Assembly (NCBI GenBank): GCA_049975265.1
Contig: JBNGDF010000001.1
Coordinates: 128,001 to 192,000, forward strand
Length of the DNA: 64,000 nucleotides
Reading direction: 5' to 3'
Origin: Fidelibacterota bacterium
Lineage (GTDB): Bacteria > Fidelibacterota > UBA2242
Notes under the pieces: model-generated
What the model was told of the DNA's origin: nothing
Database searches by the model: none
Seen by the model: only the letters and a program-made list of their open reading frames with translations
Part shown: piece by piece, positions 44,715-51,500 of the stretch
How the letters are laid out: each line of letters begins with the position of its first letter
Numbering within the stretch: the first letter of the stretch is position 1
Program-made: the position numbers and the translations under genes

Positions 44715-45890
44715 TTAGACCAGAAATATCTCCTTTTGCGGATGAGAGAGCCATTCGCAGCCGTCTTCGGTGACGACAATCATCTCCTCAACGGTGGCGA
44801 CGCCGTATCCCTCGATAGGCAGGCGCGGCTCAATGGTATAAACCTGTCCCTCCTCAATTGGCAGATAGGGAACATCACCATACCGTTCCCAGCGCGGTCC
44901 CAACATACCGGCGCCGTCGTGGGTCGAACGACCAACCTGGTGACCAAGTCCGTGAGGAAACTCGGGATAACCTCTGGAGATAATATAGTCCCGGGCGATT
45001 TTATCGATCTCCCAGCCCATCAAACCGGGGCGGATGGCATCCTTTGCCATCTGAACAGATTCGATGATGGTATTAAAACCACGTAGTACTTCGGCGGGCG
45101 CCTCCTTTTCGCTATCTCTTAAAAAATACCAGGTCCGCTGTATATCGGAACAGTATTCATCTTTTTTCACACCGAAATCAATGTTCAGCACATGCCCCTT
45201 CTGAATGATTCGCTCCGTTGGATCGGCGTGTGCACCGGCGGAATCGGGTCCGGTGAATACCGCCGGACAGGAGCTTTGCTCCCAAGCCGTCGTGACGCCG
45301 TGTTCCGCCACTTTATCCAAGATGAAACGAGCGACATCAAGCTCCCTCATTCCGGGCTGCATATATTCGGAGACCTGGGCGTAAATATTTTCTGTCAGCT
45401 GAATCGCCGCCTTGATGCGCTCAATCTCCGTTTTGGTTTTACGACCACGCAATGTGGCGACGATTTCTTCCGAGCTGACAAAACGGTCGCTGAATTTGGT
45501 TGAAGCCGTCATATCCATCAGTAATTCATACATTCCGTGAGTCAGCCCATCAGCCATATAGTCGTTTTTCGAGGTGTTAATGGCGATTGTCTGCGGATTC
45601 AGGTCATTCAATACAGTCAGAAGTTCATCCTTTAAACCACCGACATATTTGCGGATATCCCGATAAAGTCCGGTCAGGCGGACCCGTTCGTGATCCAGGC
45701 TGCCAACAATGGCGATTGTTTTGCCACTCCGGGTGATGATAAACGCCGATTGCCAGGTAACGTTTGTTCCCAGAGTCAGATCAAGACAGGGATCGGCAAT
45801 GGCTTCGGTCTCCCGTACGAAGGTCAGCCACATATCAATCTGTTTTTCCTCCAGGATGTCCACCGCCTGCTGAATTTTTTCCTGTAACAT
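44715..45890 (-). CDS. M24 Xaa-Pro peptidase
   Basis: DFG, SDIQRT, HGLGH, TIEP and EE metal ligands. Confidence 0.9.
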   Translation of the reverse strand: MLQEKIQQAVDILEEKQIDMWLTFVRETEAIADPCLDLTLGTNVTWQSAFIITRSGKTIAIVGSLDHERVRLTGLYRDIRKYVGGLKDELLTVLNDLNPQTIAINTSKNDYMADGLTHGMYELLMDMTASTKFSDRFVSSEEIVATLRGRKTKTEIERIKAAIQLTENIYAQVSEYMQPGMRELDVARFILDKVAEHGVTTAWEQSSCPAVFTGPDSAGAHADPTERIIQKGHVLNIDFGVKKDEYCSDIQRTWYFLRDSEKEAPAEVLRGFNTIIESVQMAKDAIRPGLMGWEIDKIARDYIISRGYPEFPHGLGHQVGRSTHDGAGMLGPRWERYGDVPYLPIEEGQVYTIEPRLPIEGYGVATVEEMIVVTEDGCEWLSHPQKEIFLV

Positions 45891-45946: not shown

Positions 45947-45988
45947 AAAAAATGTCGGAGGAAGTACCGGGCGGTAAATTCCTCCGAC
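45947..45988 (-). terminator. Strong intrinsic terminator on the minus strand
   Basis: GTCGGAGGAA/TTCCTCCGAC 10-bp stem with an inner TACCG/CGGTA stem, followed by ATTTTTT. Confidence 0.8.
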
Positions 45989-46046
45989 GCGTGGGGTCTA
46001 TGGCTCTATTATGAGAGCGGTGGGTTATTGTTACTCAAATAACGCC
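45947..46046 (-). ncRNA. Candidate sigma54-dependent small RNA (~100 nt)
   Basis: Bounded by a sigma54 promoter and a terminator; no translatable ORF; hairpins GTTATT/AATAAC and GCTCT/AGAGC, then an unpaired GACCCCAC. Confidence 0.6.
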
Positions 46047-46054
46047 CTACCTAT

Positions 46055-46070
46055 TGCAACGCTTATGCCA
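46055..46070 (-). promoter_or_regulatory. sigma54 -24/-12 promoter
   Basis: TGGCAT-AAGCG-TTGCA with exact consensus spacing. Confidence 0.75.
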
Positions 46071-46088
46071 AGGATATATGTTCAATGA

Positions 46089-46164
46089 TAACAATATCTT
46101 ATTATTTATGGTGTTGGTAATTTTATTACCCAATCACCACAAAAATTGTGGTGTTTTTACCACA
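46089..46164. promoter_or_regulatory. IHF-like site plus palindromic upstream activator sequences
   Basis: TAACAATATCTTA (one mismatch to WATCAANNNNTTR) at 46089; GGTAAT-N3-ATTACC at 46116; TGTGGT-N6-ACCACA at 46147-46164. Confidence 0.55.
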
Positions 46165-46181: not shown

Positions 46182-49001
46182 TTATTTCAGTAGTTTTTTA
46201 AGGAATTGACCGGTGTAGGAATGATCGATCGCGGCGATATTTTCGGGTGTGCCGGTGGCAACAATGGTTCCTCCCTGGTCACCACCTTCGGGTCCCAGAT
46301 CGATGATATGGTCGGCGGTTTTAATAACATCGAGGTTATGCTCGATCACGATGATTGTATTACCCTGATCCACCAGGCGATTCAGGACATCGAGCAATAT
46401 TTTGATATCCTCGAAATGCAGACCGGTGGTCGGTTCATCCAGAATATAGAGCGTTTTTCCGGTTCCGACTTTGCTGAGTTCCGTCGCCAATTTGACTCGC
46501 TGGGCTTCACCGCCGGAGAGGGTTGTTGCCTGTTGTCCGAGCTTGAGATAGCCGAGCCCGACGCTATGCAGGGTCTCCAGTTTTTTGCGGAGGCGCGGAA
46601 TTTTTTCAAAGAATGTCAGGGCTTCATTGACCGACATATCCAGAACGTCGGCAATGCTTTTACCGCGATATTTAATCTCGAGGGTTTCCCGGTTGTAGCG
46701 CTTGCCTTTGCACACCTCACAGGGCACGTAGACATCGGGCAGAAAGTGCATTTCGATTTTTCGAATGCCATCACCGTTGCAGGCTTCGCAGCGACCGCCA
46801 CGGACATTAAAAGAGAAGCGCCCGGCACGGTAGCCGCGAATTTTGGACTCTTTCAGTGAGCTGAACAGCTCCCGGATGATGCCGAAGGTTCCGGTGTAAG
46901 TTGCCGGATTGGAGCGGGGAGTACGTCCGATGGGATTCTGGTTGATATCAATGACCTTGTCAATGTATTCAATTCCGCGAATGGATTCGTATTTCAGCGG
47001 GATTTGTGATGATTTGTAAAAATGCCGGTGCAGGATCGGGTAGAGGGTTTCATTGATTAAGCTACTTTTACCGGACCCGGACACGCCGGTGATGCAGATG
47101 AATTTGCCGAGAGGAAAATAGACGGTAATGTTTTTCAGATTGTTGCCCTGGGCGCCGCAGAGGCAGAGCTGTTTACCGTTGCCGGACCGCCGGTTTGGAG
47201 AATAGTGGATGTACCTTTTCCCGGATAGGTATTGCCCGGTCAGGGATTGGTCGTTTTGCCGGATGTCATCGGGTGTGCCCTGGGCGACCACATAGCCGCC
47301 CGTTTCGCCGGCGCCGGGCCCCAGGTCGAGAATAAAATCACCCTGTTCGATGGTTTCCCGGTCGTGCTCCACCACCATTACGGTATTCCCGATGTCTCGA
47401 AGACGGGTGAGAGTATTCAGCAGGCGACCGTTGTCGCGCTGGTGCAGACCGATGCTTGGCTCGTCCAGAATATAGAGCACTCCGACAAGTTGGGAGCCAA
47501 TCTGGGTGGCAAGCCGGATGCGCTGGGCTTCGCCTCCGGAAAGGGTCTGGGCGGAGCGGTCGAGGGTCAGATATTCCACACCCACATTGATCAGAAAATC
47601 GACCCGTTCGCGGATTTCTTTCAGAATCTGGTGAGCAATCAATTGTTCACTGGAGCTCAGCTCCAACTCTCTGAAGAATGTTTTTAATCCAGAGACCGGA
47701 TAGGCGGTCAGTTGGCTGATCGACAGTCCGCCGACTTTGACTGCCAGACTCTCTTTTTTCAGGCGGGCACCGTTGCAGGTGTGGCAGGGACGTACACTCA
47801 TAAACTGATTGATCCAGGTTCGGATTCCGATGGAATTGGTCTGGGTGTACCGGCGTTTTAAATTGTTGATAACACCCTCAAACGGTGCATTATATTGCCC
47901 CTGCATACGTTGGGAATTATAGTTCACCGTGACAGCATCCCCGGATGTTCCATAGAGAAGCACCTGCTTTGCCTGCTCCGGAAGCCGGTAAAAAGGGGTG
48001 ATAAAATCGAAATTGTATCGTTTTGCAAGCCCTTTTAGAATGGCGGAATACCAGTTGCCCCGGGGCTGCTCACCGAGGGGAATGATGGCTCCTTCCGAGA
48101 GACTCTTGCGGTCATCGGGCACTAGCAGGTCCGGATCGATTTCCATTTGATATCCCAGCCCGTCACAGTCCGGGCAGGCGCCGTACGGGCTGTTGAAAGA
48201 GAACATCCGGGGCGAGAGCTCTTCGTAGCTGATGCCGCAGTCGGGACAGGCAAAGTGTTCGCTGAAGATGTGTTCCGCCTCGCCGTTAACCCAGACGATG
48301 ATCAGACCTGAGCCGAGATTCAGAGCCAGTTCGACGGACTCAGTGAGGCGCTCCTGGATGGAGGAGTTCACAATCAGGCGATCGACGACGACTTCGATAT
48401 GGTGTTGTTTGTTTTTATCAAGCCGGATCGGCTGGTCGATATCAAATATTTTACCGTCGATTCGTACCCGGACAAAGCCCTCCCGGCGAACCTCTTTGAA
48501 AATCTCGCGATATTCACCCTTGCGACCCCGCACCAGCGGCGCCATGATCATAATCCGGGTATCTTCCGGAAAATTCAGAATAGCATCCACGATCTGCTGC
48601 GGTGTCTGTTTCTGGATGCGTTTGCCGCAATTGTAGCAGTAGGGAACCCCGATCCGGGCATACAGCAGGCGTAGATGATCGTATATTTCGGTTAATGTCC
48701 CGACGGTGCTGCGGGGATTGCGGGAGGCTGCCTTTTGCTCAATGGAGATGGTGGGGCTGAGACCCTCGATAAAATCCACATCCGGTTTTTCCATGACACC
48801 GAGAAACTGGCGGGCATAGGCGGAAAGCGATTCCACGTAGCGCCGCTGTCCCTCGGCGTAGATGGTGTCAAAAGCCAGCGAGGATTTTCCCGAACCCGAT
48901 AAACCGGTAATGATCACCAGTTTATCCCGGGGAATCCTGACATCGATGTTTTTCAGATTGTGCTCACGGGCACCTTTTATAATGATATCGTGACGGCTCA
49001 T
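46182..49001 (-). CDS. uvrA: Excinuclease ABC subunit A
   Basis: GLSGSGKSS, two LSGGEAQR signatures and Zn-finger cysteines. Confidence 0.98.
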
Positions 49002-50786: not shown

Positions 50787-51500
50787 TTAATGGTCCTTCA
50801 ACGGGCTCCAGACCTTCCAGACATTACCGACTAGATCGGGTCCCGGTTTCAAAACCTTTTTACCCGGCGTCCAGCCAGCAGGACAAACCTCTTTGCCCTT
50901 GGAAGCGCGGACATGCTGAAATGCCTGAATCTGGCGAATCGTCTCACCCAGTTGACGACCGACGGGAGGAGTCATGACCTCCATCACCTGAATGATACCA
51001 TCCGGATCAATAATAAACCGACCCCGTAGTTCGACGCCGGCATTCTCATCGTAGACGCCATATATTTTACCAACGTTGCCGGCTCCGTCGGATACCATGT
51101 GAAAAGGGACATCCTTTTCAGCCATTTTGGACAGTTCCTGCTCGTTCCAGACTTTGTGAACAAATTGGCTGTCAACGCTAACCGAGATAACCTCGACACC
51201 CAATTCCTGTAATGTTTGATAATTGGCAGCGACCGCTGACACTTCGGTCGCTCAGACAAAGGTGAAGTCGCCGGGATAAAAACAGAGCATTACCCATTGA
51301 CCTAGAAAATCGGATAATTTGATGCTGGTAAAAGAACCCCGATAATAGGCGGGCGCCTGAAAATCGGGAGCCTTGGTACCAACTTTGATTGAAGACATTT
51401 TCGGCTCCTCGTGTGAAATATGTTCGGGTTTACTTTCAGTGGGCGGTTCACCAACAGTGGCACCTGTCGGACGAGCACAGCCCACAGCTTCTTCTGACAT
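50787..51500 (-). CDS. prxU: Selenocysteine-containing peroxiredoxin (AhpC/Prx1 type, PrxU-like), 237 aa with Sec83
   Basis: ORFs 51252-51500 and 50787-51242 are in one frame, joined by TGA at the peroxidatic site: FYPGDFTFV-U-ATE; resolving VCPAGW. Confidence 0.9.
51228..51252 (-). promoter_or_regulatory. SECIS-like hairpin
   Basis: AGCGACCG-aagtgtcag-CGGTCGCT perfect 8-bp stem beginning at the last base of the UGA. Confidence 0.7.

Follow-up and report, generated by a model that had tools for sequence, protein, structure and literature searches.

A candidate sigma54-driven small RNA family in an order of Fidelibacterota and its predicted membrane-protein target

We analysed a 64,000-nucleotide stretch of a Fidelibacterota genome (the window) and found on its minus strand what is probably a stand-alone gene for a small RNA (sRNA) of ~100 nt, likely transcribed by sigma54 under an enhancer-binding protein, with a seed that is predicted to pair with the leader of an HMA-fold gene and likely blocks its translation. 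The cassette, defined as tandem TGT-N12-ACA sites, a sigma54 -24/-12 promoter, a C-rich, G-poor body and a ~16-bp terminator with a GCCN loop, was found in 37 of the 42 genomes of the order, which inhabits marine sediment, including that of the window (G000), and in all four families (f1-f4). We take it to be a genuine RNA family, one that matches nothing in Rfam. A sequence-only reading of the window had proposed a trans-acting sRNA at this place; the sequence comparisons support that proposal, and the tests that could be run did not refute it.

Promoter, RNA body and terminator at the locus

The features of the locus, with its two flanking genes, are as follows.

46182-49001, minus strand: uvrA (NCBIfam equivalog above cut-off), upstream context only
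46164-46147, minus strand: upstream activator site 1, TGTGGT-N6-ACCACA (TGTGG-N8-CCACA), a predicted enhancer-binding-protein site
46141-46124, minus strand: predicted activator site 2, a degenerate repeat 23 bp downstream of site 1
46130-46116, minus strand: GGTAAT-N3-ATTACC palindrome, present in the window sequence
46101-46089, minus strand: IHF-like 13-mer, one mismatch to WATCARXXXXTTR
46070-46055, minus strand: sigma54 -24/-12 promoter, TGGCAT-N5-TTGCA, from a motif search
near 46044, minus strand: predicted +1 of the sRNA, placed by the standard 12-nt rule for sigma54 starts
46044-45947, minus strand: predicted sRNA of ~98 nt, with inferred ends
46043-46035, minus strand: conserved G-N-T-rich-TTGA word, about +2 to +10
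46009-45989, minus strand: single-stranded C-rich seed (core UGCCCC throughout the order) for predicted pairing with the target leader
45998-45991, minus strand: C-rich stretch GACCCCAC, from a motif search
45988-45954, minus strand: terminal stem-loop with a GCCN tetraloop (loop and closing pair 45973-45968)
45952-45947, minus strand: U-tract of the intrinsic terminator
45928-45923, minus strand: TAWATT, likely a separate -10 box for the M24 gene, found in 21/26 M24 upstream regions
44715-45890, minus strand: M24-family peptidase (family matches below curated cut-offs), downstream context only

Every motif named in the sequence-only reading was found on the minus strand where that reading had placed it, and the promoter, activator sites and terminator of the complete sigma54 layout that it described are conserved among relatives. 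TGGCA-N6-TTGCA occurs four times in the 2.86-Mb genome G000. The pattern TGGHAY-N5-TTG was present in all 34 parsed copies of the sRNA gene, a count that reflects its use in the parsing rule; a sigma54 promoter also lay 66-83 nt upstream of 5/5 held-out matches in family f3, which were obtained with a covariance model carrying no promoter information and stood in different gene contexts away from uvrA and M24. Across copies, the GG and TTG of the promoter were kept and the C of the -12 box varied, often being T in this lineage. The best tandem pair of TGT-N12-ACA type began 92-95 nt 5' of the promoter in 25 of the 34 parsed copies, with a period of 21-23 bp. Among the 23 sigma54-like promoters of G000, the tandem-site score of the sRNA promoter was unique (3 mismatches vs at least 7); its top rank in the sigma54 scan itself is circular, as the scan matrix was partly trained on the sRNA family. 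The GGTAAT-N3-ATTACC palindrome, the second one named in that reading, was not conserved, and the degenerate repeat at 46141-46124 is the predicted second activator site. The consensus used for the IHF-like 13-mer is given in the available text of PMC3045617; a similar 13-mer lay 30-34 nt 5' of the promoter in 14/34 copies.

The activator site varied by genus (L033, L036 and L038), reading TGTTAC-N6-GTAACA in genus g8 and TGTCA-N8-TGACA in genus g11, and one genome (G021, L026) carried a palindromic repeat insertion of ~170 nt between activator sites and promoter. G000, which is 95.3% complete, has rpoN, 11 enhancer-binding proteins and two IHF/HU-family genes in which IHF and HU were not told apart. 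Two activator orthologue groups were near-universal, with invariant recognition helices; the genus-specific site variants came without a matching change in these helices. One of these two groups (C4:141152) occurs throughout the phylum, yet a search of G009, G007 and G021, all of which carry the sRNA, did not find it. A search for covariation between recognition helix and site assigned no activator.

The RNA-sized stretch 46044-45947 had a fold z score of -5.2, better than 200/200 shuffles, and the predicted sRNA would span 98-281 nt across copies. Its body was weakly structured, rich in C (790 of 2911 nt) and poor in G (387 of 2911 nt), and it tolerated insertions of up to ~180 nt; palindromic repeat insertions of 20-100 nt were seen inside it in genus g3 (L032 and L034). 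The commonest words of the body were TTTGA near +5 and TGCCC(C) directly 5' of the terminator. The G-N-T-rich-TTGA start was also found downstream of groES and, at about +2 to +10, after many unrelated sigma54 promoters of the order; since it is shared in this way, we think that it probably belongs to the promoter and does not act as a seed.

The terminal helix spans ~16 bp (14-16 bp), and two-sided changes were found in 13/16 of its pairs. Using a MAFFT alignment and a structure that we specified, we counted 66 cells with a two-sided change vs 29.5 +/- 5.0 in shuffled alignments, with a covariation of 0.404 vs at most 0.223 when the helix was slid; unguided RNAalifold retained just 7 of the 16 pairs. 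The G-C-C of the loop was invariant in 28/28 sequences, and a GCCN-type loop occurred in 1 of 149 terminator-like hairpins of G000. A conserved partner for this loop was sought and none was found, and a simple terminator scan of the genome failed to list the sRNA terminator. The predicted terminator with its U-tract was borne out, though not as the plain 10-bp stem first described. Two short 5' hairpins from the same description fold in the window only and were absent in 5/5 congeners. The interval had also been described as free of ORFs; the window copy does hold a 9-codon TTG ORF, and no ORF was conserved among the 34 copies.

We searched the locus against Rfam 15 and found that no family (Qrr, GlmY/Z, CrcZ, RsaE, SdsR or any other) reached its gathering threshold, the best match in place and strand being SdsR (18.9 bits vs 38, E 1.4); the loci of seven relatives gave no match at E <= 1. 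The candidate was therefore assigned to no Rfam family, in keeping with the first description of it as an undescribed sRNA. No paralogue was found within G000 by BLAST or by either covariance model, apart from one weak match inside a gene.

Distribution in the order and further sigma54 elements

BLAST reached the cassette in 5/6 congeners, and a search anchored on M24 found it in all 11 genera of the window's family. A covariance model of the 3' core (R2), built from 28 sequences of f1 and f4, matched 27/29 other f1 genomes, 2/2 of f4, 5/8 of f3 and 0/1 of f2. Scanning the promoter pattern over five missed genomes recovered the copies of G030 (f2; model E 2.8e-4) and G038, the latter with a model E of 0.19 and called by its likeness to the G040 copy. 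The five genomes of the 42 without a copy were 57-91% complete, and the 57% one was outside the model search. Beyond the order, weak model matches occurred in 12/110 genomes (11/25 of f7 and 1/31 of f8); five of these loci were inspected (four in f7, one in f8) and had no promoter, and outside matches were dropped from the count. The strict search had overlooked the copies of G030 and G038, so that a lack of matches beyond the order is weak evidence of absence. DNA patterns searched against metagenome and genome collections matched close relatives only, apart from a single chance match within coding sequence.

Several rearrangements were observed around the cassette. It has been duplicated by insertions at the uvrA 3' end, so that G015 (L062) and G025 (L064 and L029) have two full copies each. 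In G023 (L063, C5:27700-35200), a 7-kb block of other genes now stands behind the first promoter with its sites, and between this block and M24 there is a complete cassette.

In five genomes, the sigma54 promoter pattern was more frequent than its reversed control by 23 to 1, and the -12 box of the order's sigma54 promoters often read TTGT rather than TTGC. One such promoter would drive a second C-rich RNA candidate (G000:C2:156626-156790 on the plus strand; L268:327-491; L350-L379), which contains AUCCCCUC several times over and has a terminator of its own. It had a strong match in ~30 genomes from all four families, mostly at 80-93% identity over the core, with a sigma54 promoter 66-97 nt upstream in 28/28 parsed copies and no Rfam match at threshold; this second RNA is probably as interesting as the main finding. 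In G038, yet another sigma54 promoter (L338, C44:16729-16765, minus strand) has tandem-like sites and is combined with a terminator and a body rich in C, possibly a paralogue beside the orthologue in L342. Sigma54-type promoters were also seen before groES and before dnaK-like, grpE-like, htpG and small heat-shock-like genes, named by sequence appearance (L331 and L341 in G017; G000 C10:33475, C2:83238, C3:42360 and C22:8426), which suggests a sigma54 heat-shock regulon. Elsewhere in the window, two consecutive minus-strand ORFs (51252-51500 and 50787-51242) look like a single peroxiredoxin broken in two by a stop close to its active-site position, which may be a case of selenocysteine read-through.

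Predicted target, matched changes and mechanism

The predicted target is a gene for a 128-aa membrane-anchored HMA-fold protein (G000:C9:4357-4743), with the pairing site at C9:4342-4352. This gene was the best match of the window's 3' seed among 2249 start regions of G000, a ranking that is not significant in G000 alone, as 1/20 shuffled seeds did better. A convergent tRNA-Leu separates it from smpB, which lies downstream, so that it probably has its own transcript. Orthologues were found in 33/42 genomes of the order and, as weak matches, in 2/110 outside. Against a background of 500 leaders from G000 only, the target leader paired with the seed of its own genome at p < 0.05 in 11 of the 15 genera outside the discovery genus. 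We compared 21 orthologue groups, namely those present in at least five genera of the fetched loci, and the target group reached p 1.8e-8 outside the discovery genus vs 0.10-1 for the 20 others. In G000, the joint fold gains ~18 kcal/mol over the two separate folds. The RNA of G030, found later, pairs over the target start codon (-21.1 kcal/mol, p 0.005). The 3' seed paired poorly in G027 (p 1), G026 (0.34), G009 (0.18) and G019 (0.11). In G009 (L259, C17:24382-24759), the target gene has one in-frame TAA, and it is the 5' part of the RNA, not the 3' seed, that pairs best. Other candidate targets were rejected: C1:123817 failed in relatives (p 0.14-0.99; group p 0.78), as did tatC (p 0.53). 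Four further top candidates of G000 were a TonB receptor, an M49 peptidase, GWxTD and YhhN.

To compare each RNA with the leader of its own genome, we removed RNA and leader main effects and set own-genome pairs against swapped pairs. Own-genome pairs were better (P <= 0.0004) with or without the discovery genus (16-17 genera), and the control leaders of smpB, tyrS and M24 gave P of 0.13, 0.18 and 0.89. The 16 held-out genomes, those whose leaders were not seen at first, were borderline when taken alone (P 0.05-0.08 by permutation, 0.03-0.04 against any RNA), and 13 of them had earlier given P 0.11-0.14, or 0.43 when the window was lengthened to 60 nt. Since the genera are related to one another, such P values make the result look more certain than it is. 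As seed controls, a fixed non-cognate seed used for all genomes gave 1.6e-9 and 3e-5, compared with 3e-13 for own seeds; four shuffled seeds ranged from 1e-4 to 0.38, and the second C-rich RNA used as seed gave 0.02 and 0.085. Shared G-richness accounts for much of the pairing signal. Matched changes of seed and leader were seen within one genus, with CTGCCCCAATT/AATTGGGGCAG in G033 and G035 vs CTGCCCCATT/AATGGGGCAG in G036, and also as CTGCCCCTAC/GTAGGGGTAG in G010 and CCCTTAGA/TCTAAGGG in G012. The RNA thus appears to have a conserved, single-stranded seed whose changes match those of an unlinked mRNA, the held-out subset being borderline. We regard the target as well supported by these comparisons, with the pairing predicted. 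The suggestion that a C-rich seed would pair with G-rich ribosome-binding regions appears to hold for this one conserved target.

The target protein has an N-terminal hydrophobic helix followed by an HMA fold; its model (pLDDT 69) resembled ATP7B, MerP and Menkes domains in Foldseek (target TM 0.82-0.89), and the Pfam HMA match fell just below cut-off. No CxxC metal-binding motif was found in 12 aligned rows, and the protein is unlikely to be a standard metal chaperone. Its named homologues are hypothetical proteins of the same phylum, and beyond ~20 full-length representatives the matches cover mostly the HMA part only.

We propose the following mechanism, the first steps of which follow known sigma54 biology. 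An enhancer-binding protein on the tandem sites, aided by DNA bending (IHF/HU looping), would open the sigma54 promoter, and a short RNA starting at ~46044 would end at the U-tract. Its unpaired C-rich seed would base-pair with the G-rich leader of the HMA-fold gene and silence translation, and it would do so without Hfq, perhaps assisted by an RRM or KH protein. An Hfq-dependent sRNA was rejected, as hfq (PF17209) was not found in G000, the one genome searched. RNase E/G and an RRM protein are present in G000, and matches to patterns that we take to mark KH-like and Rho motifs were found there as well. By analogy with Bacteroides, the RRM protein is a candidate sRNA helper (PMC11697453 and PMC13370968, in their available text).

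The same RNA and target could also work with the opposite sign, pairing at the 5' end to protect the mRNA, or opening a leader hairpin, and so raising expression. The position of the site, as placed by inferred start codons and transcription starts of the target genes, bears on both possibilities. In genera g3, g8, g10 and g13 it is found ~30-50 nt 5' of the start, where the mRNA is predicted to begin, and so would suit stabilisation as well. In many genomes the first paired nucleotide is no more than a few nt from the predicted transcription start, ~7 nt past a TAWATT box, and the G030 leader has its own hairpin, the 3' arm of which resembles part of the RNA. A precedent is FasX of Streptococcus pyogenes, a two-component-controlled RNA of 205 nt that raises ska expression, pairs at mRNA 5' ends or ribosome-binding sites and, by 5'-end protection, acts against an exoribonuclease (PMC12675982, available text). 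FasX differs from the window RNA in its length and in not being driven by sigma54. Against activation, a site falls on the ribosome-binding region or start codon, as inferred, in at least seven genomes (the ribosome-binding region in G000, G033, G035, G036, G034, G014 and G030), and no RNase J was found above cut-off in G000. For these two reasons we favour repression and consider activation unlikely.

Alternatively, the RNA may chiefly titrate a protein through its C-rich body and GCCN-capped helix, as CrcZ and GlmY do, with leader complementarity secondary. An unstructured body tolerant of long insertions, a conserved loop for which no partner was found, and the RRM, KH-like and Rho candidates of G000 would all suit such a decoy. 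So would the promoter layout, which is the same as that of glmY (PMC3045617, available text). A decoy would not be expected to show an own-genome advantage and matched changes with one leader, and neither Hfq nor CsrA was found in G000, CsrA being present in 19/42 genomes of the order. A decoy of CsrB/RsmY type was rejected on CsrA and on the RNA itself, in which GGA motifs lie mainly within the terminator stem and the body is G-poor. We therefore find titration as the chief role quite improbable, and retain translational block of the HMA-fold gene as the preferred reading.

Gene context and relation to known small RNAs

The element stands directly before M24 in most f1 genomes, ~55-60 nt from its start in the window's genus, and could be taken for a sigma54-driven leader or attenuator of the peptidase. 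In G008, however, the gap from terminator to M24 is ~460 nt; other genes follow the sRNA in f4 and f3, where in f3 it lies elsewhere than next to uvrA; and convergent genes follow it in G040 and in one of the two G015 copies. M24 itself has the -10-like box listed above, and TAWATT was found in 602 leaders 140 times in sense, 87 times in antisense and 79 times after shuffling. Since the sRNA precedes several different genes, two of them convergent, we read it as a stand-alone RNA gene rather than an M24 leader. At the level of gene context, then, it is uncoupled from M24, and a leader role is unlikely, indeed already largely refuted. That no unit is transcribed, the hairpin being a terminator of uvrA or a convergent gene beside a vestigial promoter, is just as improbable: a same-loop terminator without a promoter does occur in genus g25 (4 of 12 such matches were inspected), but in four families the promoter stays with its activator sites, the seed and the terminator when the locus changes. 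The g25 terminator (L106-L109), with the same CCGCCCGG loop and no sigma54 promoter, lies between a fliG-like and a convergent upp-like gene, both named by sequence appearance. As judged from sequence, the element appears to have its own promoter and intrinsic terminator, to be independent of its flanking genes and to contain no conserved ORF.

We compared the element with known systems. GlmY is a decoy for RapZ and GlmZ needs Hfq, and these RNAs of Enterobacteriaceae resemble the window RNA in having a sigma54 promoter, an IHF site and repeated TGT-N12-ACA-type sites that drive a small RNA. Here, by comparison, the RNA is mostly unstructured and C-rich, has no Rfam match, and Hfq was not found; a search with a RapZ-like motif only gave no convincing match. 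The GlrR site of the GlmY/GlmZ system, TGTC-N10-GACA (PMC3045617, available text), matches the activator-site variant in genus g11. CrcZ of Pseudomonadaceae shares sigma54 and an enhancer-binding activator with the window RNA. CrcZ is a longer, A-rich decoy for Hfq/Crc, whereas the window RNA is C-rich with a predicted mRNA partner; the CbrB site, TGTTAC-N6-GTAACA, matches the activator-site variant of G013. The Qrr RNAs of Vibrionaceae need Hfq. Like the window RNA, they are base-pairing RNAs of ~100 nt whose synthesis is under sigma54 and an enhancer-binding protein, with TTGCAWWWTGCAA as the LuxO site (PMC10162802, available text); the activator site, seed and target differ, and there is no Rfam match. 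RoxS/RsaE of Firmicutes is described in the available text of PMC4409812 as having several C-rich stretches, Shine-Dalgarno pairing and no major Hfq effect, and as induced by a two-component system with ResD as activator. The likeness lies in the C-rich pairing; RoxS is under ResD rather than sigma54, the core here is UGCCCC, and Rfam gave no match. In the literature covered, which took in few subscription papers, we found no description of such an RNA; motif tables in supplements could hold one.

A wider picture can be offered only tentatively, and on balance we doubt it in full: the order may have an Hfq-free sigma54 sRNA layer, with at least two order-wide C-rich RNAs under enhancer-binding proteins of their own, one-to-one coevolution with the HMA target since the order arose, and a GCCN helix that docks a non-Hfq chaperone (RRM/KH).

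Small-RNA regulation is known from few cultured phyla. The cultured Fidelibacter multiformis belongs to class AB16 (PMC11652737, available text), and the order studied here is known to us from assembled genomes only; in it we describe an RNA family that no Rfam entry matches, and we give the logic of its promoter and name a target. Support for a named target from matched sequence changes is unusual from genomes alone. Anchoring on sigma54 promoters uncovers further RNAs, a second family having appeared at once. The preferred reading would join traits of separate groups, namely sigma54/enhancer control as in Qrr and GlmY and Hfq-independent C-rich pairing as in RoxS, and it suggests that a signalling circuit acts, in the end, on a membrane protein that is still uncharacterised.
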